A DNA stretch of 58,638 bases, counting the filler, from Fonticula-like sp. SCN 57-25 (lineage: Eukaryota): NCBI GenBank assembly GCA_001724245.1. It is 3 parts of 3 records of this genome, joined end to end, with 100 filler letters (N's around TTAATTAATTAA, not from the genome) between each part and the next. Parts side by side here need not be neighbours in the genome. Positions count along the whole stretch, not along the records: positions 38,761 to 58,638 come from MEDX01000107.1; 2 more parts are not named here. One strand, written 5' to 3'. Below the pieces are notes generated by a model. The model was not told the origin of the DNA. It was given only the letters and a program-made list of their open reading frames with translations, and did not search any database. Position numbers and translations under genes: made by a program. Below are positions 2,088 through 54,928 of the stretch, one piece after another. The number at the start of each line of letters is the position of its first letter. Within the stretch, counting starts at the first letter, position 1.

Positions 2088-5000
2088 TCAATCTTCTGGC
2101 AGCGACGCAAACACTCTTGCCTGCTGCCTCTCAAGCACCTCGCGCTGCAACTCGTCGGCAAACCTCTACATTGCCACGTGAGCAAAATACACATCTACCT
2201 TTTCGCGTACATTCTTTGCGGCATTGTCGCTGCACTCGATACTTCTAATCTCCTTTTGCGCGCCGCCGCGCACGACCGCGAGCACGCCCGGCTGCACCCT
2301 TAGCGTGTCCACGTCATCGAGCGGGATGTGCCACGTGATCTCAAGCGACGCGGCGTTGCACGCGATCAGGTTCCTAAAGATTACGTCAGCATTTAAACAC
2401 ACTGGCACAAAACGTACGTGGTCGTGAGGAGCAGGTAGGTCGTATAGTCGTCGCCGTTGAGCCGCGTCTTTGCTGCCGCTGCGCGCTCCGCCGCCTCCTG
2501 CATCGGTTTGCAGTTTGCAGTGGACAGCGCGAGCATGGCGACAAAGAGGTCTTCCTCAAAGGCGCGTCTTCCGGCCCTCCTGAGAATATCGCTCCCGACG
2601 GCGCTCGCCTTTTCGAACGGCTTGATGAGCCCGTCGCTCTGGATGAACCTCGGCAGCCGCTTTCGCGCGGGGAAAAAGTGCGCATCGAGCCCGAGCGAGC
2701 TGCTCGTGATCCCCTGGGCGATCTTTGATGTTCCATCGAGAACGCCAATGACGGGCTTGGTGACGACGCCCGCGATTCCCGTGCCGATCCCCTTGACAAA
2801 GCCCAGCGCGCCGCTCTCCCTGGCTCCCTGCGCGGGCTTTTGAAAGAGACCCGCAAGCCCAGCGCCGAACCCCTTGAGGACGGTCGTGGCGCCTGCAGCG
2901 ACGCCCGCCATGGTGCCCGCGGGCCGCTCGCGCTGCGCCTCGTGGCGCTCCGCCTTGTACTGCCGGTCAAAGGTCGCCTCGGCGAGCCCCTTGCTGACCG
3001 ACGACGTGATTTTGCTCACGCCGCCAAAGAGGCCCGCCACCGAGTTGCGCAGCAGCGACGCTGTTCCGCGGCCAAGGCCGCGCGCAAAGTCTTCGGGCGA
3101 GCGCACGAGACCAAGGTACGGCTCGTAGAAAAAGTCTTCCACGCCCGACGCGAGGTTGCTAAATAGCCCGACAGGGTTGCCGATCAGGTCGACCGCGCCA
3201 ACCACCTTGTGCACCTGCGTCAGCGCCTGCTGCGCATAGTGCCGGCCAATCAGCGCCTTGAGCGTCGACGCGTCCAGCGTGGCCAGCGAGAGCTCCAGCG
3301 CGTTCAGGCGCACGGGTGCATCGCGCACATTCCCGAGCGACATTGTCAGCGCCTCCACGAGCACGCGCACGGGCCGCGTTGTCGCCGACATCAGATAGTC
3401 GTCATCAGGGGCAGAGTCGGAAGAGGCCGACAGCGACCGCACGAGGCTGACGTTGACGCCGATTGGCTGGATCTGAAACACTTCGAGGTAGACGGCGACG
3501 GACGACCGCTCACCCTTGAACATGCGGCGCGGAACGGGCGGAACGCCGCTCGCGTCGAGCGCACCAGGCGCAAAGAGAGGGCTGCGCTCGAGCTGGCGTG
3601 CTGCGCTGGCTGACGATGGCGCGAGGCCGGTGGCAAAGCGGATCAGCTCACGGATCGTCGACTCTTCCACCTCGACGGATAGCTGCTGCACGAGCAGGCT
3701 GCAGTACCGCACGACGAGCACGCTGCCGGCGCCCGAGCGGCGCGCGGAAGTCGCGTCGGGCGCGCTCGCCGACGCCGCCATGGTCGCGGCGAGAATGGCG
3801 CTCATCTGGATGATGGGAGCGCCGAAACTGCGCTTGGCCTGCTCTGTGCGTGGCGGCGCGCGCGCAAGCAACACGGGGAACTCAAAGTTGGGCATCTGGT
3901 TGTCCACCTGAAGCTCTTGAAGGCTGACTTCGACGCTCTGTTGCGCCGCGCGCAGTTGCAGCGAAGCAGCGAGGCCCTGCAGGTTCAAGTACACGAGCTC
4001 GCGCGGCGCGGCAGACACGAGCGACACGCCAATCTCGGCCACGTTAAGCGACACATGGAACGACGGGCCGTCATCTACTTGTTCATCGACGGTGGCGTCG
4101 TCGTCGTCGTCGTCGCTGATGATTTCGGAACGCGCGCCGACGAGGCGCCTTAGTTGGAGAACACGAACGCCGTTGTCGGGGACGACAGCGAGCGCGAGAC
4201 CGCCGTGCGGAAAGGCAAATGGCTTGTGGTCGCCGAGGCGCGCGAGGTCGACGCGCCTACTGTGCTTCCCCACGTGGATAGTGATGCTGCGGTCGGCCGC
4301 GGATGGGAGGTCGAGCGCGAATGGAACGCACTGCCGGGGCTGCGCAAGGTACCGCGACGCGCCGGGAAGGGCATCCGCCGCTGTCTGCCCGAAACGAACG
4401 CCCGTCTCGCTCAGATTGTCGACGCGGAACGGCGCGCCGCGCGCCCACACGGTAAGGAGCACAAACAAAGTCGCGCCCTCGAGCGCGATGCGCGCGCGCA
4501 GCAGGACGCTACGGCTGCCGCCGGTTGTATCGGGGTCGGGTGTCCGAACAAACACGTCGCCGACGTCGTTGACGCCAAAGGGAACGGACCATGCGCCGCC
4601 GTCGCCACCCGCAAACACGCGGTGGAGCCGAACGCGCACGAGGCGCGACTTGGCGTCAAAGTGGAACGGCAGGCGCGCGTCATTGTCGACGAGCAGCGCC
4701 GCAGCAGTTTCGCTGTCGGCTGCGCGCACTTCCAGCGCGTACCCGGTGCGGTTGGCAATGACGAACCGCGGCGAAAAGGTAATGACCTTGCTGCAGAAGA
4801 AGCGACCGCTGCCGAGCCGCATGGCGACGCCGAGCTGAACGCCGCCGGCGCCGCTGACGCCCTTGAGCTGCGCCTCGCCGGTCGATCCCGCCGCGATGCC
4901 AAATCCGGCGCTGTACTGTGTCTGGCCGGACACGCGCACCGCCAGACGCGGCGCAACGCTGCTCGAGCGGAAGGAAAAGAGCTGCACGGCCGTCTGCGCG

Positions 5001-8000
5001 AGAACTTCATTGGTGCTCGCCGACCCCGCCGCGTCGTCCTCGCTCGCAACACTGAGCAGCGTCGATGCCGAAGCCGATGTTGTTGCAGAAGGACCCGAGC
5101 TGAGGCCGCCGGCCTGTCTGAACTGGAGCGGCAGCGCCGTCTTGTTGACGAGTACGATTGGGGCGTACACACCAATGACGCGGCTGGAGCGGTGCCCCGG
5201 CAGAACAGCGTTGTGCAGGTTGAGCCTCACTGTCTGGCGCGCTGCCGCCGGGGTGGTTTCGCTGTCGGACACGAGCTCGACTGCGCCGCCAAGCATGGCG
5301 AGCGACTGCCCCGCAAGTGTGATGCGCGCCATTTTGGCGCAGACGAGCCGCAAGGAAGGTACCTGGATGCTCAGCATCAGGCGTCGCGACACGTCGGCAT
5401 GGAAGAAGCAGCTCGACGCGCCCTCGAGCACCGTGTCGCTCTCAATAACAACGCCAAGGTCCGCGTCGACAATGCTCACAATAATATCGGCAGGCACGGC
5501 GTTGTCAATGCGGATCGGCGGTGACGCGCGGATCAAGAGGTTTGCGGGGAAGCCGCGGCTGATCGAAGCGGCGTCATGGTGCTGCCACACCACCTGCGTG
5601 TCAAGCTGCACGTAGAACGGCGCCTGCTGGGCCTGCTGCTGGGTCTGTTGCTGCTGCACAGGCTTGCAGATGGCGGCCGACGAGGCGTCCTGCCGCAGCA
5701 CCTCGGCGTTGAGCTGGTGCGTGCTATACGCAAACTCGCCGCCGTCGGGCGCCAGCTGCAGGTAGCACGCGCCCACCTTGGTAATCGCCATTGGGACGCT
5801 CCACGTGGCACCCGGTGCTGGAAAACGAGTCAGAACAGAGCCAATTCATTATTAAATGCGTACCGACAATAACAGCGGGGCCGGCGGACGACGCGTCCTC
5901 GTTGCGGATGCGCACCTTGAGCGGGCACGATAGACCATTGTGAAGTGCGGCCGACGACCGAAAAAGGACCGTTTTGACGCCGCGGCTGAAGCGGACCTCG
6001 CACACAAGGTACAGCGGCGCAGAGGCCGGCTGCTGCTCACCAACGACTGGTTCGAGGCGCATGAGGTGGAGCCCGACGCGGTCAACCGGGATGCCGCTGA
6101 CGGGCCGCACGCCGAGAGATTCTGCAAAGCGGACAGACATGCGCGGCGGCGGGACGGCGGCGGCCTTGTCGACGGCGCGCATCCACGTGCCTGGGTTCCA
6201 CTCGAGCGTCTCTCCGTCGCGGAGCACCCCCGAAAACTGCGCCTGGCGCGCCTCGCGCGTCACGTCGGCAACTTCTGACGTCCACAGGTCGAGGTCGCCG
6301 CCCGTCGCGTTCTTGAGCACGTACGGGTGGTAGTCTGCGCGCTGGTTCTTTGACGCCGCGGCCATCTTGTCGCGCTTGGCGGCCGCCGACAGCGCGAGGT
6401 CGCTCTTCCAGTCCTCGGCGACTTCGAGCAGCGTCCGCAGCATTGTGTGGCTCACGGTCACGTCAAGTGACGTTGGGATGCTCGCGACGAGCGAGATGCG
6501 GCGTCCGGCGGACGTATCTTCCTGCTCTTCCTTCTTTTGTTGCTTGTCATCGGCGCCCTTGCCGCTCAGGTGCACGTACAGCGTGCATGGCTCGACGACG
6601 GGCTCCCATGCCGACAGCTTGCTGTTGAAAAAGTCGGCGGAAAAGGTGAGCTGTGTCTTGGCTGACAGCGACTCGATGGACCAATCCGAAAGGTCAATGT
6701 CCATAGCGCGCAGCTGCGCCTCGAGCAGCGGGAGGTTGCTGCTGCCACAGTCGTTGATGACAGTTGCGCTCACGCCGCCAAACTGGACGTGCATCACTTC
6801 GCCGCGGAACTGCGACATGATCTCGTCGGCGACAGCGGCGGCGCGGCGGGCGCGCATGGGCGCCGCGACAAAGGTGGCAAAAACGTCGCCGTGAACGAGC
6901 GCGGTAAGCGGCGCGCGCTGCTGCTCGGTAGCCTGGCGGTGCTGGTATGCGCTCACCATCGCGAGCGCGTCCGTCGCCATCGAATGCGCCACGCGAATGT
7001 CAGAGTACGAGACGCGCACGCTAATCGGGTCGATGCGCAGCACCTGAGCTGAAGGGCTGCGCACCTCGCTCACGGGCCGCGCGGCCACCTGCGCGTTCGC
7101 CAATGTCAGCGAGCAGTCCAGCCGGAACGGGTCCAGGATAACAACGCGCTTGTTTTGCGCGTTCATGCGGCACACAAATGCAGTGATGCCGCCGACGCCC
7201 ACCGTCACTGCGGTCGACTGGCGCGCGGCAACCGCGACAAATACGCTCTGCACACTCACCACAATCGCCTCAGAGTCATACTGCGTAATGTCATGCGCGT
7301 ACGCCACGCGCATCTCGTCCATCTGAACATTCGCCGTCACTTGCTTCAGCTCCGCCACCGGCGCCGCGAGCGGCGACGCAGACGCGGGCGACAGGCGACC
7401 GACATCGGACGACAGCCGCCCGCGGCGAGCGACCGGCATGGACGCCGACGGCGGCGCATGCCTTACCACTGGTGTAGCTGCTGCGGGCGGCACGAGGCCA
7501 ACCAAAAGCGGCAGCAGGAGCTCGATGGCTTCGGCGAGCGGCGGGTAGATAAAGTCGTAGAGCGAGAGCGCGAGGTCGGTGCTCGCGACGACCGAGAGCG
7601 GCGGGACAGACACGTCCAGCGCGACGCTCCCCGACGGGAGGACCTTGACGCCAACGGTCAGCCGGCGGTCCGAGCCGTCGTCCGCGCTGCCAAACTGCAA
7701 GACCTCGCGGAAGATAACGTTTTGCTGCGACCGCGCCGGGTCCCACACGCTGAACGGGCGGCAGTCGCGAAGGGCAAGGCCGCTCGAGCGAAATGACACG
7801 TCAATGGCGCCGGTCGCCAGGCCGCGGACAGTGAGCACTGCCTCCTTGACAGAAAGGTCGATGAGAAGGTGCGCGCCGCCGCTTGCGGTCGTCGTCACGA
7901 GAAGCAACTTGCCGCCGGCGAGCTCAACATCAATGCCAAAGACGGGCACGAGCTGCTTGGCCTCTTGCACGGCGCGGAAAGCGTGCCGCGAATCGGAGCC

Positions 8001-11000
8001 GACAGACTCACCGCGCGGCCGCGGAACAACTACGCTCTGCTGCGAAGGCTGCTGAAGGAGTGGAAGAAGCGCGCCAATGTTTTGCGCCACCTGCACGAGC
8101 CGCGCGAGGAGGAACGCGTATTGCGCGTCGGTGACCGAAAAGGAAATGAGGCCGAGCTTGACCGACACGTTAATCTCGGGCGACAGCGGCGCGAAATAGG
8201 CGGCGCGAGGCGGTGACGCCGACGCGGTTGATGTAAACGATTGGCCGTGCATCCTAATCGGGCCGCTTGCGCTGCGCACACGCGTCGGCGTCGCCTGCAG
8301 TGCTTGTGTCACTCCACCGGCGGCCAGCTGCCTGTCGAGCGCAATGTGGATATCAAAGCGCTCCATGAGCGAGACAGAGGCGCCGCCGAGCTCCGTGTTC
8401 ATCTGGACGCCCTCGAGCGCGAGCGACATTGCGTCCGTAGTCGTGCGCGCGGTCGACTCGACAAAGCGGTTGGCAAATGTGAGGAGGCCGAGGTCGATGA
8501 CGAGGCGGTTCTGGCGCATGCGGTCATCGGGCAAAATAATGCGCGGCGCGTGCAGCTCAACATCAAAGAGCATCTTTGTAGCCTGGATCGACGAGCCAAC
8601 GTCCATGAGGTTGCGCTGCGCAGGCGCGGGACTTGGCGCCAAGTAGGGCGCGACGCTCTGCCCGACGGCCAGGCCTGCGTCGATCAGCGCGACGACGGCG
8701 TCCGAGATGTACACCACCTGGAGGCTGCCGAGGCGCACCTGCAGCTTGCCGTCGTGGCCTGGGTATGACGAGGCACTTCGCTGGTAAGTCGTCATACTCA
8801 CCGTGCACAGTGCTCCGTCCTTGTCAACATCGGACGAGATCATGTCGTCTGACCCTTGTGCAGAGTGTGCCACAAGCTGGATGCTGCCCACGTGCGCCTC
8901 GACCTCGAGGCGGTCGCGGTACTCGGACACGCCCACCGAGCACGAAGCCACAGACAGCGTAGCGATAGTGCCGGCCTCATCGGACGCGCGTGCCGCCCCG
9001 TCCGCATCCTTGGTGTGCGACATTGAGACGGAGATGCCGCCGATCGACGCCTCAAAGCCAAAGTTGACGAGGTCGGCGGCGCGCATCGCCCGAAGGTTCA
9101 TGATGACATTGTCGGTAAAGAGGGTTCGCGGGTGTGCGTCGACCAGTGACGGTAGCGGGTTCTCCAGGAACGTCTCCAGGATCATTGTCATGAGCGGGTT
9201 CAGCGTCAGCGGGTCGACCTGGATGTCGAGCGGCGCAAGGCGAAGGCTCACGCTGTTGAGCGTGCCGCGGTGAATGCTCCGCAGCTCGGGGTTTGACGGC
9301 TTGATGTCCTTGACAAGCAGCAGCATGGCCGAGTTTGGCCCGTGGCGCGCGTTCGCCCGCAGCATGTCGACAAGCGGCACGTCGCGCTGCACCACAATCT
9401 GCGGCCCTGTGCGGCTCTGCTGGTGCTTGCGTCCTGACTGACCCGAGCGCAGCATCGGCGCGCCGCCGGCGGTCACCTGAAGCTGCTGCACGGAGAGCGC
9501 AAAAGCGGTTTCGTAGAAGCGGTCGAGCAGCTGGATGCGCATCGACGACGCCGTGAGCGCCGCACTATCGCCGAGCGCCACCGTGGCGTCGTGGATGTGC
9601 AGGTAAAGCAACACAGTGACGCGGCGCCACCACGCGCGGCTCGACGCTTCTGAAGACGGTGCCGCCGACTGCCCAAACGAGGCGAGCGACGCGTGCGAAG
9701 ACGACCGCGACGGCGTGCGCAGCGAGGATCGCGAGCGGGCCAGGCCTTCGTCGCGCGAATCAGCATCCAGCTCGAGCGCGAGCAGATTGTCAAAGTCGTC
9801 GGTGTCACCGATGACGGCCGCGTACGCATGGTGCGTGATAATGTCGTCCTGCAGCGCCGTCTCCTCCTCGGCGTCGAGGTCGAGAACGTCGTCGGGCACG
9901 AAAAAGCTCGAAAGCGCGCCGTCAATCACGATCATGAGCTGCTTGAACGCGTCGGTCGTGACATTGATACCAAAGCGTAGGATCTCGCCGGTGCAGCAGA
10001 GCTGCGGTAGCTCGAGGGCGTCGGGCGCAAAGCACTGGTCGAGGAAAAGGTTGGCATCCGTCGGGCGCAGGATGTGGTACGGCGTGCCGCGCTCATCGCC
10101 CAGCGCGCTCCGGAGCGCCGGCAGCGCCGGGCCAACGACCACCTGCAGGGCGAGCAGCTTGAGCGACAGCCGGTCGTACACGACGCGCTGCAGCTCCTCA
10201 AGCTCATCGGGCGACAAACGGTGCTTTTGGCGAGCAAGGAGCTCGCGCTTCTTCTCGCGCTCGACAACGTCGCTGCCGATGATCACCTGGCCGAGGTCTA
10301 CCACGAGGAAAGCTGTGTTGCACGGCGACGGGACGACGATGACGGGCGCGCGCAGGTTGACGTGCAGCTCCATTGTTTTGTGCAGCCGCAAGTGGCGCTC
10401 GAGCTGCAGGCGCGTCTGCTCGCGCACCTTTTGGAGCGTCTGGCCGAGCATGCGCTGGAAAAGCGCCAGCGAGGACTCGTCGTCGGGCGGCGTCAAAAAG
10501 GCAATGAGGTGATCAACGGAGCGCTTCGAGTACGTCACTTCGAGCGGCGCCAGCTCCGCCTCGAGCAGCATGTCGGCGTGGCGGCTTGCGGGCGCCGAAT
10601 CAAATGTTAGATGAAAGAGAACCGGGTCGGCCGATTTGGTCACGCCGTCCGCCTTGGGCGCCAAAAAGACGCCATCCGCGCCGGTCAGCGAGAGCGAGCG
10701 CAGCGACGCCTCTACCTGTGATGCTACCGGGCGGTTCTTGACATCAACACGCATGCCCTTGAGGCCGAAAAACAGCACTGGGGTATCGGCCGACAAGAGC
10801 GAAACAGACAGCGTGTTGAGCGCAGCGCCGATTGAGAGCCACGTGTAGTCGTCGGGGAAACGCTGCTCCGCCTCGTCGTCCTCCTTCATGTCAATCACGC
10901 TAAACAGCGCGGAAAGGTCGCTCTCGTCAAGCTCGAGAAGAACGCTGTCGCGACCGGAAACATCCTGCACAGACGCCCCGGCAGCGGCACCGGCGCCCGT

Positions 11001-12517
11001 TGCGGCGGTCTTTTTGCGCCGCAGCTTGGCTAGAAAACCGCTCTGCTTCTTCTTGGGCGCTTCGATCGGCGTTGCTCCAGGTACCGATGCCACCGACGCG
11101 GTGCTGCGAGTCGACCCAGCTGCTGCCGGCGCGGGTTCCTTTTTGAGGCGCTTGAGGCGCTTGCGCTCTGCCTCGGCGAGCAGGCGGTAGAGACGCATGT
11201 CCTCGAAAGAGAGCTGCTTTTCGAGCATCGCGAGCTCGACCTTGGTCGTCGACGCCTTGTCCTTTAGGCGCTTGTTGTAGAGCACGATGTAGCGCTGCCG
11301 CTCATCGCGCCTTGCCTTGAAGAACGACCACGACCAGCGCCGGTTTCTGTCTTGGATGCGCGAGCGCACACAGGTGATGGCGAACCGCCACCACGCGCGC
11401 TTGTCCTTGGAAACGGAGACTGTTGGCCTGTACTGGCGGTAGGGCTCTGCGAGGATGAGACGCTGGAGCGCGCCCGACAGCATAATGAGATCGCAGTATT
11501 GCCGGCGGTCGAGCTCGATCTGCAGCGCCTCCATGATAATGTCGAGCTGCACCTTTGGTACGGCCTTGAGGATCTGCGAGCCCGAGTGGAGCCGCACTTT
11601 GCAGTCGATCGAGGCGGGCTTCACCACGTATTGATGCGTGACCTTGCAGCGGCCGTCCTGGTCGGGGATGCCGGCGAGCATTGCGCGGGCAAACTCGGCC
11701 TCGCCCAGGTGCGCGACAAAGTCGGGGTGGCGGTCAAAGTAGACGGACAATGACTCGACGCCAATGATCTTGTGGATAAAGTCGCCTGGCTTGCGCACAA
11801 AGCCCGGCGTCCAGTCGGCGTTGGTAGACTGCATCGACAGGCGGTGCAGCGTCAAGCCCATCGCAAACGGATGCGAGGGATCCGACGAGCTGTCTTCGTA
11901 GCGAATGTGAACATAGCCAACGTTAAGCTGCAGATTAGCAACGATCTTGGTAATCAGCTTTCGCGCAAAGACGTCGTCGCCAGAGTCGCCGCCAGACTTG
12001 CGATCCTTGGCGTTCTTGCGCTCGTCCTCAAACTCTTCCCAACGACGCTCCTTGTTGCGCTGCCGCCGCTCTTCTTCATATTCAGGATCATAACGCATCT
12101 GCGAACGCGGCACCGCCACGACGTAAAGATGGTCCGCGAGCACATGCACAGGCTCTGTCTTTAAATTCTTCCACGGGATCTTGAGCACAAGAGAGCCAAT
12201 ATACCCTGCGAAATGAATGAGCTAGATGCCGGCCATGACTAAACACGCACCTCGATGCACTTCAATGGGCAAATTGAGCCTTTTAAGCGCCTCTCGCCTC
12301 ACCTTGACATTTCGAAGTGTAACATCGCCTAAATGTCGGTCAGCACGCAAAGTGAGGGTAGCCTGGAGGCGCACCCTTCCAAAGCCCAAGGTCTAGTTGT
12401 TCCTTGTTCACTCCCTCAATAAAATCGCCAAGGTACCTAAAAATAATTGGTCAAACGCGCGCACTCACATACTCGGGCGTACTTGTTAAGAAGCGTGGTA
12501 ACTGCGGCTTCTAACAT
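2088..12517 (-). CDS. VPS13: VPS13-family bridge-like lipid transfer protein (multi-exon, about 3300 aa)
   Basis: Spliced N-terminus MLEAAVTTLLNKYLGDFIEGVNKEQLDLGLWKGDVTLRNVKVRREALKRLNLPIEVHRGYIGSLVLKIPW is a chorein-N domain. VAB/SHR-BD region contains KVITFSPRFVIANRT and WSVPFGV. C-terminal LQVDNQ and LIGNPVGLFSNLASGVEDFFYEPYLG...KGIGTGIAGVVTKPV motifs. Three short 5' introns, one near 5820-5864 and two 3' introns; TGA at 2088-2090. Confidence 0.97.
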
Positions 12518-19324: not shown

Positions 19325-19424
19325 NNNNNNNNNNNNNNNNNNNNNNNNNNNNNNNNNNNNNNNNNNNNTTAATTAATTAANNNNNNNNNNNNNNNNNNNN
19401 NNNNNNNNNNNNNNNNNNNNNNNN
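19325..19424. other. artificial contig spacer
   Basis: N44-TTAATTAATTAA-N44; the 12-mer gives stops in all six frames. Confidence 0.98.
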
Positions 19425-38660: not shown

Positions 38661-38760
38661 NNNNNNNNNNNNNNNNNNNNNNNNNNNNNNNNNNNNNNNN
38701 NNNNTTAATTAATTAANNNNNNNNNNNNNNNNNNNNNNNNNNNNNNNNNNNNNNNNNNNN
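38661..38760. other. artificial contig spacer
   Basis: N44-TTAATTAATTAA-N44. Confidence 0.98.
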
Positions 38761-39797
38761 AAGACGCCCATGTCCCTTGCCCGTGCGAGCTCGGCGACGA
38801 CCGCGCCATTCTCAGAGTGTGCCCGCCGCCCAATGGACGCCGCGGCGCGGCCGGCGAGCGCCATGCACGGCACGTCGCCCGACATGAGCACGCCTTCAAG
38901 CGCCTCGCGAGCGCGCTTGGCGCCGCCGAGGCGCGCTGACACGACGTCCCCGAGCGCGGCGACCGAGTTGAGGTGCGTCTGACGCGCAACGGCCACGTCG
39001 GCGTGAAGGCGCTCCCGCCGCTCGCCGAGCCGCGCTGCAAGGTCGTCAAAGTAGCGGTCAATTTGGCCGTTCATTTCGCGCGCAAGGTTCTCTACGAGAA
39101 CGGCGTGATCGCGAACGACGTGAAGCTTTTCGGCGTGCTGCAAAGCGACGTGGCTCGCCTCCTTGGCGGCGCCGCGGAGGGCGGCGGCGGAGACGGCGAG
39201 CGTGTCGGACAGCGAGCGGCGGTCGTGCGACGCGTGAAGAGAGCTCGAGATGCACTCGGAGCAAAGGGGGACATTGCACATGGCACACATTGCATCAATA
39301 GGCAGGTGGTGATGCGCGCACCTCGACGACTGAAACGGGGCGGCGTCACCAGCCGGGGGAGGGAGCGCGGCGACGGGCTCGCGCATGTGGTGGCGCGAAC
39401 CGCGCGCGCGGCCGTGTGCAGCGTCATGGATGGAGCATAGCAAAAGACGACAGTCGGCGCAGTGCGAGACGGCGCGGGCATCCTCGGCGACGCCATCGGC
39501 GCACACGTCGCAGCTCAGGTACCCGTCGCCATCGGGGCGGCGGCGATCCCACAGCGAAAGCTCTGCAAGGTGATCCGCAAGCGCGAGAGAAGCACTGTCA
39601 ACAGGCAGCGGCAATGCCACCGACCCGCGGCACACGGGGCAGCTGCCACACCGGAGCGAGCACTGCGTACACACCGTGTGGCCGCACCCAAGCTGACGAG
39701 GGATGCGGCCGTCCGAGCCGCTATCAAACGAAACGCCGCATAAGGCGCAGCTGCAAAAGGCCTCCACGAGGCTCGACACCCACGCAGCAGACACCAT
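38761..39797 (-). CDS. TRIM/RBCC E3 ligase (RING, B-box1, B-box2, coiled coil), 3' truncated
   Basis: C3HC4 RING CALC...PRQLGCGHTVCTQC...CPVC; B-box1 CDVC...HCADCRLLLCSIHDAAH; B-box2 CAHH...CAMCNVPLCSEC...HASH; BBC-like coiled coil (QIDRYFDDLAARLGERRERL). Confidence 0.9.
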
Positions 39798-40018
39798 CGC
39801 CAGACTGTCGTAAGGAGGCGGGCCGCGACGACGAAAACGCCGTGTTGACAGGGGACGCCGCCATTCCTGGCGGCAGCATTTACTGGAGGGGCATTGTGCA
39901 AACTGGCATGCAATGTGCAAACTCTGGTGCAAAGTATACCTCCCGCGTGTCAGCAGCAGCTGAGCAGCAGGGCGGATCCCACAGCGACGAGCCGCGCCGG
40001 TGCGATCACATTTGCAGT

Positions 40019-40607
40019 ATGGGCAAGGTAAAGGCTTCGTCGCACCGCGGACGCGCCAAACCGTATAATCCCGATCGCGATGGGCCGATCATCCCCCGCG
40101 TCCCGCAGCCGACGAAGCGGGAGCGGCAGCGGGTGCAGCGCGACCTCTGGGCCGAACGTGCGCCCTTGCTGTTGCCTTTCGTTTCTTTGTGNGTAGATGT
40201 TGAGCAGTCGGGCGAGGTGCAGGCGCGCACGCGCGAGGCGGTGTCTGCGACATCCAAGAAGGGCGAGGCCATCCGCCTCGGTGACTTTAGCGCGATGACC
40301 GACACGCTCGAGGACGCGCTCGAGATGATGTCGAGCGAAGGCGGCGTGGCGCGCGGACAAAAGGCGCCGCTGACGCAGGAGCAGGTTGCTCACAAGAGGA
40401 CAGCGTCGCGAAAGGGCCGCAAGAAGAACACGTGCGCAGCGACTCTTTTTTTTTTGGCCATATTTTGCTAACACTTGCCTCGCGTGACATAGCCAAAAGG
40501 AGCTCTTGCAGTTCAAGAACGTTTTGCGCAATGCCACGTTCCAGCAGAACCCGGTCAACGCCATCTCCCGCCACCTGGCCAACGCGGTTGCCGCCAACCA
40601 CATTTAG
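40019..40607 (+). CDS. SLX9: ribosome biogenesis factor Slx9/FAM207A
   Basis: MGKVK...TKRERQRVQRDLW...LGDFSAMTDTL...ELLQFKNVLRNATFQQNPVNAISRHL; two introns. Confidence 0.8.
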
Positions 40608-45850: not shown

Positions 45851-46659
45851 CGTGGTCGCCAGATTCGCTACCAAAGAAAAATGCGCAAATGGAAAAGGAC
45901 GGCTAAAGCAACCCTTCTTCACCTACAAAGTAAAACAAACGGACGCCTAAAGACGACCGCAAAAAAAGCCCAGAGGAAAGGGCTGCGCAAAAGGCTAGAC
46001 TCGCTCGCTAGAGAAAGAAGGAAGAAAAAAAGCGACCGACCGTCAGCTTCAGCCAAGGAGGATGACGGGCAAAACTCCTGAAAAAAGGAGGCGGCAAACG
46101 GAAAACACGAAAACAAAATTTGATACCAAATAAAAGATGCGCTCCACGATAACAAGCACCACTCGACAATACGACACGCTGCCTTTTCCCCGCGCAGCAA
46201 TCGTTTTGTATACTATTATCCAATCTTCCTGCGTGCGCGTACCAAAGCCGACGGGCCTGAGTCACACTGGCTACGATTTCCTTTTTTGGATAAAATATCT
46301 TTTTATGGAACCATCAAGCATGGCCCGATAAGTCTGAAGCAAAGATAAGGCTCTTGTTGCGCGATACAGCCGCCCACAGCACCGTGCTTGCCGGCGCGTC
46401 TGCCCGGTTAATTATTCGTTTAGGCGCAGTGCACTTAAGGTCGCAAGAACAGCTCTTCAGCCGCAGCCGTAGTGCACTCTTGTTGTAGTGCCCTTTCCTC
46501 TGACGTGTTTGGGCGGATTGATCAAAGTGCAAACTAGTTTGCAGTGTGCGTGTGTTGTAACTCTCGCCGCCAGCGTTTCGCTGATCGGATCCCCCTAAAA
46601 CACACGCGAGCGCGCGCTTCACCGTACCTCCGTGGACAGGGAGTTGTAAAGCCGCCTCT

Positions 46660-49197
46660 ATGAACTTTGTTGACGAAGTTCTCGACGCGAGCGAGTCGCT
46701 CACGCAAGAGTGGCAACGCTCGTTCTCTTCGGTACGTCTTTCTCCCTCCTTTTGTCAAGGTGCCCTTTGCTCATTTTGCGCGATCCCCCGCTGCGCAGCT
46801 GCTCGAGTATGAGGCGCTTGAGCACCGTCCTCTGCTGTCGCTCCGCTCGGATATTGTTAAATTCCTGCGTCTCGTCGAGTCTGGCGGAGTGCGCAAGGGC
46901 GATGCCGAGGCCGAGCGTCTCTGCGCTTCGATTCGGGATGGCCTTGCAGCCCAGCATCCACTTCAAGATCAGCGCCTTTTTAATGTTCGCCGCACGTACG
47001 CCGCGCTTGATCGCCAAATGAACCGCATCGAGTCGTCGATGCGCCTCGTGAACGAATCCTTCATCGTGGACGACGAGATCGATGCCGCCGAGCAGCAGCT
47101 CCTCGAGGATGCCGCGCTCGCCGCGCTCGTCTCCGCGGGCGGCTCCACCAAGGGGTCCTCCTTTGGCATTGGCAACGGCAGCCCCGGCAAACGCAGCAGC
47201 GGGCAGCAGTCGACAAAGACCGTCGTCAGCGGCGGATCGCTCGGCCGTGTCGGCCAGGGCGCTGTAAGCTCGTCCTCGCAGAGCGCCCTTCAGAGGAAGA
47301 AGGTGTCTGGGCAGGTTGCGGGCGGCGCCCAGAGCTCGGCGAGTGCGGCGGCGGCGGCAGCTGCAGCGGCGGCGCAAAAGAAGCGCCCAAAGGGAATGTC
47401 GCGGCTCGAGGCGCTCATCGTGCGTCCCTTTTGTCTTTTACTCACGCACCTGTACGCTCTTCTGATGCTTTATTTGTCTAGAGCCAGGAGCTTCCTATCT
47501 ACCGCGGCAAGGGCCCGTGCCCCCCGCTGTGCGGCCCGACGCCCGCTGCGGCCAACTACACGATGAAGAAGGGCGACAATGTTGCAGCGCGGACGTCCAA
47601 GCAGCGCGACCAGAACGAGTGGATTCTCGCCGCGATTGTGCGCCACATCCCGCAGCGGAACCGCTACGAGGTGGAGGACGTGGAGGAGGACGAGTCGGGC
47701 GCCGGACCCGCCGACGGCCAGCGGAAAAAGTACATCCTCCCGCAAGATGCGCTCATCCCGCTGCCAAAGTCTCTCCCGGACCCGTCCAAGAAGGTGCGAC
47801 GCGCCATTCTTTATGCTTTGCTTTAATTCTCACCGCAATTGTGCTTGTTTTCCCATTTTCAGCTCGAGTTTGCTGCCGACAAGCGCGTTCTTGCTCTGTA
47901 CCCCGGCACGACGTGCTTCTACGAGGCGACTGTGATTGCGCCGCCGTCGCGCCGCCGCAAGGAGAACGACTATCTCGTGCAGTTCCAGGACGACGAGGAG
48001 AGCGACATGCCGCACAAGCCCGTGCCGCAGGTGTTTGTCCTCAACGTGCCCGATGAGACGTTTGTTCCGCCGGGCGGCGACGCGAACGCTTCCGCGGCTT
48101 CTTCCTCGTCGGCCAGCGCTGCGGCTGCTGCTGCTGCGGCGGCGGCGGCGGCGTCAGATGTGAACGCGACGGCGCCGTTCCCGTCGGTGAAGCCGACCAC
48201 CCCCGCGGCGCGCGGCGACGACGAGGGCGAGGAGGAGGAGGAGCCCGAAGAGGAGGAGGCGGAGATTGAGCCCGAGGAGGCGGAAGAGGAGCCCGAAGAG
48301 GCGACCGCCGCGGAGAACGAGGAAGAGGAAGAGCAGGAGGAAGAGGAAGAAGAGGAAGAGCGCCCCGCAAAGAAGGCGGCGGCCGGCATGATGATGTCGC
48401 CGTCGCGGCGCATGTCGATGGACGGCCGCCGCTCGCTACAGGCCGACGACGCGGAGGAGAGGCGCAAGGCGCGGCAGCGCGACGATGAGGACGAGGAGGA
48501 AGAGGAGGAAGACGAAGAGGAAGACGATGACGAGGATGAGGAGGACGGCGACGGCGAGTATGAAGGTGCCGGGTCGAAGCGGCGCTCGAGGGGCGGGCGC
48601 GGCGGCGCGGCGCGCGGAAAGCGCGCCCGCCTTTCGTCGTCGCGCGGCGGCAATGCATCGGCCGCGGCGCCGTCGGCGGACTCGTCGGACTGGCCGGCGG
48701 GCGGCTCGCCCGTGCCGTTCCCCGCTATCGCTCGGCGCGACGGCGGCGACGACGACGAAGATGAAGACGATATGGCCGCCACAGACGATGAGGACAAGCG
48801 CGACGCTGAAAAGGCCGACGACGATGGCGACGAGGCCGGCGAGGATGATGAGGCGGGCAGCGTCGAGGTGGAGGACGAGGAGGATGACGAGGAGGAGGAG
48901 GGCGAAGAGGCGCGCGAGGAGGCCGCCGCGCAGCAGGAGAAGGACGACGAGGCGGCGGCGATGATGGCGTCGTTTGCGGCGGGCGTGTCGGGCCACCAGC
49001 AGCAGCAGCAGCGGGATGCTGAGGAAAATGAAAATGAGGAGGACGACGAGGAGGAGGGTATGGGGGGAGACGAGGAGGATGAGGATATCGACGACAGCGT
49101 ACGGGATAAGAGCAATGCCGGCGCGACCGACGATGAAGACGGCGAAGAGGACCGGCGCGCAAAGAACGACGCGGACGCAATGGACGTCGATTCATAG
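46660..49197 (+). CDS. SGF29: SGF29 tandem-Tudor protein with ING-like N-terminal domain and very long acidic tail
   Basis: LPIYRG..CPPLCG, KGDNVAA, EWILA, YEVEDVEE and VLALYPGTTCFYEATV...DYLVQFQDD are SGF29 signatures. Exon 1 (46660-46731) and exon 2 encode an ING-like helical N-terminus. Three introns. Confidence 0.9.
48210..49197 (+). repeat. GAG/GAC/GAA-rich coding low-complexity region (D/E tail)
   Basis: About 330 codons dominated by Asp/Glu. Confidence 0.9.
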
Positions 49198-51561: not shown

Positions 51562-54460
51562 TTACATTTCAGAAACCAGAATTGACGTGATGGCGAGCGC
51601 GGCCGCCGCGACGGCATAAAAGAGCACGTACGGCACGACGACTGCTCTGCCGACCATAAACACGGCAATCGCCTGGACGACCCTCACGAGCACTGCGCCC
51701 GTCCCCTTTCCGCTGCTTCCTTTACCCACGCGCGTGAGCGCCATCGCCGACGCGACAAGCGCAATGAACGGCGCGAGCGCCAGCGGATCGCGGTCGTGCG
51801 GCGCAAACGCGTTCATCAGCGCTCCCACGTTGGATGAAAGCCAAGTGGACTCGCCAGCATGCCACGGCCACTCGTGCGGGAGCATCCAAAGCGGCCATTC
51901 GTCGTCGAGCGGGCGCGCTGAGCGGAACCACCCGGCCGACAGCGGCGCCGTCCCAATCAGCATCAGCGCCAAAACCACAAGCAGACCCACGTGAACACGG
52001 TGCGCCTGCGCGTGCGCATCCCCTCTAAATACCCACGTGGCAACTGCCGAACGAACGCATGTCACAAGGTGCACGAGCACGACGAGCCCAAAGGCCACAT
52101 GGTACGGCACTGCAACAGCGACTGCCGCGAGCGCCGCAGCGACAGCTACAGCAACAGAGGCTGGACCGACGCCGCTCGCTCCCGCTTCGTCCGTTCCTTC
52201 ATCGGTCGACCGCCTGCCGCGCTTGATGAGAACGAGGGCGTACGCGGGCGCCGCGAGCACGAGCACGACAAGCTCAATGAGAACGCTGACAATGAGAAGA
52301 ACGCCGATGGCAAGAAGGAGAAGCACAGGGAGAAGGAGGACCGTCTCGTCGCGGCCGAGGAGCACCTGGTACCGCCACGCTTGCAGCGCTTCGGGCAGAA
52401 CGGCGTGCGTCTGCAGCGCGCAGAGCGCCGCGGCGGCGAGCGCAAAGAGAGGCGCGCGGCGGAGTATGTCGCGCGCCACTACGGCGCGGAACGACGGCAC
52501 GTCGCGGTTGCGCACGCGCCACCGCAGCTGGTACCCGACGACGCCGACGGCAAGCGACAGCGGCAGAACAATGATCGCCAGTGCGTAGCGGCGCGCCACT
52601 TGCGCAAGCGTGTTGAACGCGTCGATGTGCACGTCCAGCTGCGGCGCAGTGGTGCAGAACGGATCGCGCAGTAGTGTCACGAGAACGTACGGCGCGCCGC
52701 CCTCGAGGTCCCCGTAAAGGTATCCGTGCGGCGCATTGACGCCGTGAGGAACAATCGGCACCGGCGCATCAAAGCGGCCGTTCACTTTGACCTCCTCAAA
52801 CGCCGACACGGAGCGCTGCAGCACCAGCGGCGCGCACTGCGGGTCGTCGCGCACCACCAGCGCGCCCCCTACGAGCGAGCTGCCAAGGGGCGCGGGAAGA
52901 CGCCACGTCTGGGCGAGGCGGCCGCGCGCCGCCGGCAGCGCCACGGACGACACCCAGAGCGACCACGGCGACGCGAGCGGTACTTCAATAGGCGCCTCGT
53001 CATCGGCGCTGCCGCGCTCAACCACCAGGGAGCAGCGGGGAGGAACCTCAATCACAATAAACGGCTCGGGGGTCGAGACCTCGAGCAGCACGGCGAGCGA
53101 ACCGTCCGACGGGTGCGGAAGCGGCATAAGCGCCGCCGACACACCTGTGACGTCGTCCGGTGACCGCCCAGCCCACACGCTCAGCAGAGGCGTCGGTGTA
53201 CCACGTGGACCGCGGGCGTACGCGCGTACTGCGCCGCCGCCCGGTCCGAGCGAGACAACCATGTGGATGGGCGCGCTGTCAGGGGCCGTCGCGCGGTGCG
53301 GCACCGCGTCGGCGGCCGCGAGATCGGCGTCGTCGCGAGCGCCGCTCGGCGGGCGCTGCGCGTCGGCGGTGGCGGTCGGGCCAACGAGCGTCTCAGAGAG
53401 CGCCTCGAGGCGCTCGCTTAGCGGGAGAAGCGACGGGCCAAAGCCTTGCGCACGCAGAGCGCGAAGGACAGAATACACCGCCTGGCGGCACCACAGCACG
53501 CTCTGATGGTCAGCCCCAGTCCAGCACTGCGACAGAGCGGACGCAAAGGTCGTGAAGCAGTGCGAGCGAGGGCACACGAGCGACATGTCGCAAAGGTCGC
53601 TGTTGACAATAACGTCACGTGTGCCGCCCGCAATGGAGACAACAGAAACGTCCGACAAAAGCGCGCCTATAATTCATACACAGTTGGGTCGCGTGAGCGG
53701 AGAAATACAAAACGGGAAGCGAGCGCACTGTCGTTGTGGGCGCCAAAGAGGCGGTCGTGCCAAAAGGCGTTGACGGCGGTGTAAACGCTGCGGGCGGGTC
53801 AGTTAACGTATAGAACAAGGTGCGATCGCACTTGAAAAGCGGCCACTCAATGTTGTATGGTGGGGCAGCGTGCGGCGTGGCCAATGTAAAGATTGAGCGA
53901 ACAGATCCCGGCCTGTAGTTTGGCAGCGTGAACATGGCGCGGGCGATCACGCCGCCCATCGAGTGACCTATTATGACCACATGTTCCGCGTGCGGATAGC
54001 GCTCAAGCAGCAGCGCGACGGCGTCGTTGGCAAACTCGGCCTGCTCCATGAGACTCACGCCATAGAGCCCGGTGAACTCTTCATAGGCATCGACAGTGTA
54101 AAAGTCGAGCGCGGCAACGCCCTCGGCCCGCGCAGCCTCTGCCGCAAGCGAACGAACCTGCCGCGGGCTTCCGGCCGACCCAGGAATGAACAAAACGGGA
54201 AACCGCTCCCGCGGGCCGGGATGAACGCCACGCTCGGTGTAGCGGTACATGGCGTACTTGCTGCCGAAGCGCGACGCACCGACGGCCACCGTCGAGTAGG
54301 ACGGCTGCATAAATGTCATCTGGCACAGCGAAACTTCCTTGTCTATCGTCAGCTTCCACATCATCGCCGACAAAATTGCTGCGGTGGCGAGCGCCAGCGC
54401 TATCGCCGGAGTCGCCCGCAGAACTCGCCGCAGCACACCTCCACCGCCCTCCTGCGGCAT
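51562..54460 (-). CDS. BST1: GPI inositol-deacylase (PGAP1/Bst1)
   Basis: N-terminal TM, CQMTFMQPSY, PVLFIPGSAGSPRQVRSLA, IIGHSMGGVIAR (GxSxG lipase motif), TLATPH, SIAGGTRD, WTGADHQSVLWC and a C-terminal multi-TM region; two introns. Confidence 0.95.
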
Positions 54461-54928
54461 CGCTGACACGGTTTCCCTCCAAAAGGATCGGGAGATAAAA
54501 AAGTGACACCCCGGTTGGGACCAAGCAAGTGGCTTATAGCGTAGTCTTTATGTACAACAAAAACAAAAGACTACTTCGTCTCCGCGACCTCGCCCTTCAA
54601 CGTGACAAGTGTTTTGTGCCTTTGCTGGAAGAGAGCGTGTCAACGTTTGGTATGGTCTCGGTATCGGTATTGACTACTATGGTCCATACCACGACCCACT
54701 CCGGGCAATTTTTGAATGTGGATTTCTAGGAATGTGCAAACTGATCTGTAGTTTGCTTTGCTTGCGCCGAGGTGCGGGGAGACGCAAAAAGAAAGGGCCG
54801 ACGTGGACGGAAAACCTGTCAATTTTATTGGCACTCGAGCGACGTTTTCCGTTGTGTTTTGCTTTTTCTTTGTATTTTTTGTGTACTATCCATTGTATTG
54901 TTCATAGTGTATTGAGTGGAGTGATTTA

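Follow-up and report, generated by a model that had tools for sequence, protein, structure and literature searches.

Acetyltransferase and deacetylase complexes have two standard routes to H3K4-methylated promoters, the ING proteins and SGF29, which differ in both docking part and reader. ING proteins dock into MYST acetyltransferase (NuA4, HBO1, MOZ) or Sin3-Rpd3 complexes, and their PHD fingers read H3K4me3. In the Gcn5-Ada2-Ada3 module, according to PMC7528701, H3K4me3 is read by SGF29. Here we describe a gene of Fonticula-like sp. SCN 57-25 (GenBank assembly GCA_001724245.1) that draws on both families. The gene lies at positions 46660–49197 (+) of the window, by which is meant the whole 58,638-nucleotide stretch of DNA that was analysed, in the part taken from record MEDX01000107.1. 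As one gene, it probably encodes a nuclear histone-mark reader of a hybrid family, in which a diverged ING-type N-terminal docking domain is followed by an SGF29-type tandem Tudor that replaces the ING PHD finger.

The predicted protein resembles SGF29 (human SGF29/CCDC101 and yeast Sgf29; PDB 3ME9, 3MEA, and 3MP1) in its tandem Tudor with a preceding PPLCG motif and conserved aromatic cage, and in the order of a helical N-terminus followed by Tudors. It departs from SGF29 in having an N-terminus outside the ordinary family, a long linker, an acidic tail of 378 residues, and a total length of 779 residues, against approximately 260–330 in most relatives. With ING proteins (ING1–5, Yng1, Yng2, and Pho23; PDB 4AFL for ING4 and 8COK for ING3), it shares a helical domain of approximately 110 residues from the first residues onwards, collinear weak matches to the Pfam family PF12998, a profile-profile match between its clade and ING N-terminal domains (ING-N), and an H3K4me3 reader, here a predicted one, towards the end of the protein. 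Unlike ING proteins, it has no PHD finger, and its ING domain falls under the Pfam cut-off. A third group, haptophyte hybrids (P0170, P0155, P0154, and P0077), has the same order of ING-N, low-complexity linker, and SGF29 tandem Tudor. The ING domain of the haptophyte proteins is plain, whereas that of the window is worn; their Tudors fall in a separate clade, and they lack the acidic tail.

Gene model and exon-intron structure

The locus reads as a single spliced gene on the plus strand, the four exons of which give an open 779-residue protein comprising a helical N-terminus, a low-complexity linker, the SGF29 tandem Tudor, and the acidic tail. Its features are as follows:

46660–46731 (+): exon 1, 24 codons from the first ATG; start of ING-like helix 1, with a degenerate ING N-terminal motif
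46732–46798: intron 1, 67 nt, GTACGT...CAG, phase 0
46799–47119 (+): exon 2, first part; remainder of the ING-like helical domain, residues 25 to approximately 131
47120–47419 (+): exon 2, second part; Gly/Ser/Ala-rich linker with a basic KKRPK stretch at its end, then a short conserved pre-Tudor motif
47420–47481: intron 2, 62 nt, GTGCGT...TAG, phase 0
47482–47793 (+): exon 3; pre-Tudor PPLCG motif and first Tudor
47794–47862: intron 3, 69 nt, GTGCGA...CAG, phase 0
47863–48060 (+): exon 4, first part; second Tudor with methyl-lysine cage Y348, Y355, F376, and D378
48061–49197 (+): exon 4, remainder; predicted 378-residue Glu/Asp/Ala-rich tail and stop codon (49195–49197)

Translation and splice-site inspection indicate that all three introns are GT..AG introns in phase 0. 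Two of them, at 46732–46798 and approximately 47420–47481, had been named in the original prediction made from this DNA, and every peptide quoted there is present in the 779-residue translation. The extent given at that time, 46660–48060, holds for the N-terminus and the Tudors, but it left intron 3 unnamed and ended before the frame does, at 49197. Intron G+C content is 0.43–0.57, against 0.69–0.87 at third positions of exon codons. Upstream of exon 1, the frame is closed by a stop at 46582–46584. Exon 1 is needed for the start codon, because no Met precedes the helical domain in the exon 2 frame, and the frame of exon 1, if read unspliced, runs into a stop at 46812.

A metagenome scan returned seven loci (L001–L007). 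L003 duplicates L004 (99.98% identity), L002 and L001 are 96 and 85.5% identical to L004, respectively, and L005–L007 come from a distant AT-rich organism. Both L004 and L001 show the exon order of the window, with introns at the same positions: that of intron 1 is common to the window, L004, and L001, and that of intron 2 to the window and L004. Between L004 and L001, the N-terminal exons share 96–98% protein identity, while the introns have diverged by substitutions and indels. The intron-free relative P0004 (290 residues) reads through the exon 2–3 and 3–4 junctions of the window, and P0008 through the exon 3–4 junction. The short motif at the end of exon 2 is kept in P0003, P0004, and L004. 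In the AT-rich environmental eukaryote represented by L007 (3391–3657, +), L005, and L006, the gene is of the ordinary SGF29 type, with an N-terminal exon that carries the usual SGF29 coiled-coil pattern and Tudor exons split by several very short AT-rich introns.

Because one open exon runs from the helical domain through the linker to the conserved pre-Tudor motif, the helical half and the Tudor half cannot easily be separate genes. Two genes or transcripts, one for a small helical protein and one for a Tudor protein starting downstream, would also have to accommodate an exon 3 that begins directly after a stop and has its first Met 28 codons in, within the conserved region. The recurrence of the same order and introns in L004 and L001, and the contiguous proteins with both domains found in relatives, argue in the same direction, and we regard this arrangement as extremely improbable. 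By its reading frames, splice sites, and relatives, the gene at 46660–49197 is real and is predicted to be spliced as one unit.

The tandem Tudor domain

Pfam scans were run exon by exon, rather than on joined exons, with E-values up to 10. The SGF29_Tudor family (PF07039; cut-off 23.8 bits) matches exon 3 at 3.6e-13 (50.1 bits, profile positions 1–69) and exon 4 at 5.2e-16 (59.3 bits, profile positions 74–132). Against the human SGF29 structure 3me9 in PDB, exons 3 and 4 gave E-values of 1.5e-13 and 2.2e-8, respectively. D378 corresponds to Asp266 of human SGF29, and D297 and E299 to Asp194 and Asp196, three residues to which roles are ascribed in the human protein. The cage residues of human SGF29, given in PMC10889360 as Tyr238, Tyr245, and Phe264, align to Y348, Y355, and F376 of the window. 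On these profile matches and alignments, the Tudor half is an SGF29 tandem Tudor with an intact aromatic cage, as had been proposed, and H3K4me3 binding is predicted for it. No PHD finger was found in the four exon translations, which agrees with the earlier statement that the Tudors stand where ING proteins carry that domain.

Comparison of the N-terminus with ordinary SGF29 N-termini

A phmmer search with exon 3 against 1.84 billion representatives gave 180 matches (E ≤ 1e-3), the 150 best of them listed. From proteins starting with Met, N-termini 94 residues or longer were taken, and 10 were removed as low-complexity, read-through, or not SGF29 (P0004, P0019, P0024, P0027, P0028, P0050, P0108, P0130, P0137, and P0140). 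A profile of ordinary SGF29 N-termini (SGF29-N) was iterated from the seed P0016 with an inclusion threshold of E ≤ 1e-3 and compared with 236 reversed or shuffled decoys. It collected 48 of the 54 N-termini and none of the 236 decoys. Its members include tick, vertebrate-like, fungal, ichthyosporean, and Pharyngomonas proteins, so that its reach covers Discoba, Metazoa, and fungi.

Against this profile, the window scored 1.0 bit, L004 2.9, L001 1.8, P0077 1.3, and P0014 4.7 bits, while the best decoy reached 9.0 bits. In a profile-profile comparison (hhalign), the window, L004, and L001 together gave 1.0% against SGF29-N and 1.9% against the same profile reversed. Judged by these scores, the N-terminus of the window is outside the ordinary SGF29 N-terminal family. 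The result bears on another explanation of the locus, in which the gene is the ordinary SGF29 orthologue of its lineage, with a drifted coiled coil that still binds Ada3 in a SAGA/ADA-type acetyltransferase module, and in which the likeness to ING is a by-product of similar helical hairpins. A profile that spans Discoba, Metazoa, and fungi, yet scores the window clade under decoys, speaks against such drift, which we consider unlikely for this and for the further reasons given below.

Probable ING character of the N-terminus

The ING reference used throughout consisted of the Pfam model PF12998 (ING N-terminal domain; 102 profile positions, cut-off 23.9 bits) and the ING-N domains of haptophyte hybrids. 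In L004, exon 1 matches PF12998 at E 0.3 (12.1 bits, profile positions 2–25) and exon 2 at E 0.15 (13.0 bits, profile positions 22–78). The two matches are collinear with the splice, and PF12998 is the sole family listed for either exon. In the window, residues 16–82 of exon 2 match profile positions 38–100 (E 0.055, 14.5 bits); the only other Pfam family for this exon was one low-complexity match, and exon 1 alone (24 aa) had no Pfam match. Three exon pieces, namely exon 2 of the window and exons 1 and 2 of L004, thus match PF12998 in the right order, which a drifted SGF29 coiled coil would not readily explain. The original prediction had contrasted an ING-type domain with a generic coiled coil; ING was found to be essentially the sole Pfam family, although it lies below the cut-off in the window copy.

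The spliced N-terminus of the window (residues 3–114) aligns with residues 7–114 of L004 over 112 residues at 21.6 bits (E 3.5e-6), against 9.4 bits for the best of 236 decoys. MAFFT alignments of the separate exon pieces were misaligned and were left out of the profiles. When the window, L004, and L001 were compared as a group with 12 haptophyte ING-N domains, hhalign gave 60.7% (score 32.0, 93 collinear columns), against 0.2% for the reversed haptophyte profile (all controls 0.2–1.9%). L004 alone gave 36.9% (score 28.2) and was collinear over 94 columns. It thereby stands above all 48 ordinary SGF29 N-termini compared singly with the same domains (median score 14.2, maximum 21.7), another point against drift from an ordinary SGF29. 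The window alone gave 0.6% (score 15.0), which is within the background of ordinary N-termini, so that the ING signal comes from L004 and L001.

Several results weigh against an ING assignment of the window copy. Its direct match to PF12998 remains below the cut-off with exon 2 alone (14.5 against 23.9 bits), and its score of 15.0 against haptophyte ING-N, at background level, is what would be expected if it were an SGF29 orthologue with a drifted coiled coil. A haptophyte ING-N HMM did not discriminate, as L004 scored 14.7 bits, under one reversed decoy at 16.1 bits, and the window N-terminus was absent from the top 40 matches of this HMM. No match at E up to 10 was found when the N-terminal part of exon 2 was searched against PDB sequences with phmmer. 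P0014 alone gave 2.6% with hhalign against the haptophyte ING-N profile; because this relative also scores poorly, the haptophyte profile is taken to be narrow. Helical N-termini moreover draw many weak Pfam matches, which likewise favours a chance likeness between hairpins.

The AF2 model of the N-terminal part of exon 2 is all-helical (mean pLDDT 68), and a Foldseek search with it against PDB gave no match at E ≤ 0.001, the matches listed being generic helical proteins with no ING chain among them. An ESM Atlas search returned TPR-like and unnamed bacterial clusters at 0.80–0.82 and was uninformative. Taken transitively, through L004 and through P0014, the evidence makes it likely that the N-terminus of the window is a strongly diverged ING-type domain. 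The ING-type N-terminus originally read directly from the window is thus supported indirectly, by way of L004 (28.2 against a maximum of 21.7), while the window copy by itself stays at background and sub-threshold.

Distribution of the ING-N and SGF29-Tudor architecture

The 84 exon 3 phmmer matches of at least 200 residues were surveyed with Pfam, and four of them had ING matches (P0077, P0014, P0119, and P0064). In P0077, PF12998 matches residues 32–134 above the cut-off (32.5 bits, E 1.3e-7), and the Tudor domain follows at 301–437. P0014 all but reaches the cut-off (23.6 bits, E 7.8e-5); as the sister of the window clade in the Tudor tree described below, it argues further against a drifted coiled coil. 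Weak matches occur in two ordinary SGF29s, P0119 (E 0.061) and P0064 (E 0.52), which fits the view that such likeness can arise as a by-product. None of the remaining 80 proteins surveyed had an ING match at E ≤ 1. The best PDB match of P0077 outside SGF29 is the N-terminal domain of ING4 (4afl, E 0.023, query 27–132 against chain 5–104), followed by ING3 (8cok, E 1).

A search with P0077 and P0014 returned 19 proteins, 15 of which have both PF07039 and PF12998 as precomputed domains. The carriers of the hybrid include Chrysochromulina tobinii Ctob_008309 (P0170), C. parva (P0155), and Chrysotila carterae (P0154), in which the ING motifs are plain. Their public entries are named “hypothetical” or, at most, “SGF29 C-terminal domain-containing”. 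A word-index search with the ING region of P0077 returned only P0077 itself, and no description of an SGF29-ING hybrid was found in the literature, as judged by titles and the openings of abstracts. By its domain matches, the architecture is already present in public protein sets, to which the window adds a far-removed lineage whose ING part has decayed. The survey of SGF29 relatives for ING-N that had been suggested has in this way produced one protein above and one at the cut-off. Of the two alternatives offered at the outset, a chimera and an ING ancestry of the SGF29 coiled coil, the former is supported by the 1.0 bit of the window against SGF29-N (best decoy 9.0), the ING-N match of L004, and haptophyte proteins that pass the Pfam thresholds for both domains.

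Long extra regions before the Tudors are also found in the SGF29 proteins P0015 (Balamuthia mandrillaris, 445 aa) and P0063 (Didymoeca costata, 436 aa). That of P0015 is very acidic, and the name of this protein at its source, death-domain-associated protein 6-like, apparently stems from low-complexity similarity.

Tudor phylogeny and origin of the hybrid

A quick IQ-TREE analysis of the Tudor region was run on 92 rows, leaving out the read-through fragments P0001, P0002, P0003, P0006, P0007, and P0010 and rows that did not cover query positions 35–150. The window, P0004, and L004 grouped together, with P0014 as sister (SH-aLRT 90), while the haptophyte hybrids formed a separate starred clade (97). 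The window clade adjoins fungal SGF29s with ordinary N-termini (Tieghemiomyces, Neoconidiobolus, Cunninghamella, Rhizophlyctis, and Cladochytrium), at a support of 86 that is not starred. This placement counts against the hybrid and would also fit an SGF29 orthologue, the N-terminus of which has drifted. A tree constrained to hold all 25 ING-side rows together had a log-likelihood 0.15 higher and was not rejected (p-AU 0.51). As the free tree separates the hybrids and a joint clade is not rejected, one origin and several origins are both possible.

A deeper relationship could also be envisaged, in which all SGF29 N-termini derive from an ING-type hairpin and the window clade, P0014, and the haptophytes retain the ancestral look. 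The occurrence of the hybrid in lineages as far apart as haptophytes and the window clade would agree with this, as would the unrejected single clade of ING-side rows and the two weak ING matches among ordinary SGF29s. The ING-like group also aligned with ordinary SGF29-N at 20–28% in hhalign, and the global alignment was collinear helix to helix, although at 20%. Ordinary SGF29-N against haptophyte ING-N, however, gave only 7.8% (score 18.5), no better than reversed controls (9.0 and 8.9%). In addition, 78 of 80 N-termini other than those of P0077 and P0014 have no ING match at E ≤ 1, and the ING-like N-termini are at decoy level against the SGF29-N profile. We consider such a common descent quite improbable; if true, the reader subunits of SAGA and MYST acetyltransferase modules would share an origin. 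The earlier suggestion that the coiled coil of Sgf29 descends from ING was accordingly not sustained: profile comparison gave no signal for descent of ordinary SGF29 N-termini from ING (7.8% against 9.0% reversed; weak ING matches in two of 80 other N-termini), a result with which deep homology of two short helical hairpins would still be compatible.

The corresponding evolutionary scenario is doubtful to the same degree. It would make ING-N joined to an SGF29 Tudor an ancient reader subunit of eukaryotes that predates the divergence of haptophytes, stramenopiles, and the fungal-animal side, and from which the ordinary SGF29 N-terminus was derived. Were this the case, the H3K4me3-reader subunits of SAGA-type and MYST-type modules would go back to one origin, and the lineage of the window would have kept an intermediate.

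The acidic tail and other features of the window

The frame remains open for 378 codons past the second Tudor, that is, for 1137 bases beyond 48060, up to the stop at 49195–49197, with Glu (85), Ala (67), and Asp (58) as prominent residues. The tail is probably coding, because its G+C content by codon position (0.79–0.81, 0.44–0.49, and 0.80–0.81) matches that of the other exons and the sequence directly 3′ of its stop codon is AT-rich. The sequence is of low complexity, and other frames are also open across it. A Pfam scan of the tail returned no family. The tail is absent from L004, P0002, and P0004; in L004, the stop follows the Tudor by 4 codons.

The window is ordinary eukaryotic nuclear DNA, in which the other genes include VPS13, PGAP1, TBCC, a piece of a kinesin gene, and a sorting nexin. 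The VPS13 gene (2396–12221, −) is very large, with open frames of 2165 and 1150 codons and VPS13_N, VPS13_M, VAB, and C-terminal domains. A PGAP1-type GPI inositol-deacylase gene (51565–54547, −) extends over two long open frames. The only recognised domain in a 459-codon open frame at 38712–40088 (−) is a B-box zinc finger (PF00643, 9.4e-6); the frame adjoins a run of N. Such runs are found at 19325–19368 and 19381–19424 and at 38661–38704 and 38717–38760 (44 N each, with 12 bases between the members of each pair), together with a single N at 40192. The runs were read as masked stretches or assembly gaps, and their layout is oddly regular.

Predicted function and significance

In the proposed protein, the Tudors would act as they do in human and yeast SGF29, with the H3 N-terminus bound by the first and H3K4me2/3 by the second. 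The N-terminal helical hairpin would pack into the helical bundle of a chromatin-modifying complex, and the docked enzyme would thereby be brought to H3K4-methylated promoters. The basic KKRPK stretch probably serves as a signal for nuclear import; the acidic tail, provided that it is translated, may contact basic surfaces of histones. The preferred partner is an ING-type scaffold. This could be a MYST acetyltransferase core of Eaf6 with an Enhancer-of-polycomb or BRPF-like protein or, with lower probability, Sin3-Rpd3L; together, these candidates have about an even chance of including the true partner. An ING-type scaffold is favoured because docking specificity sits in the N-terminus, and the N-terminus appears to be of the ING rather than the SGF29 type. 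Ada3 of a SAGA-type module would come next, as a tentative second choice.

A conserved natural hybrid of this kind would show docking part and reader to be interchangeable modules. It raises the question of which complex the hybrid serves, and whether its carriers keep both standard proteins. The gene described here would widen the known range of the hybrid to a lineage far from haptophytes. As the ING part can decay below database thresholds, the hybrid family is probably under-counted.

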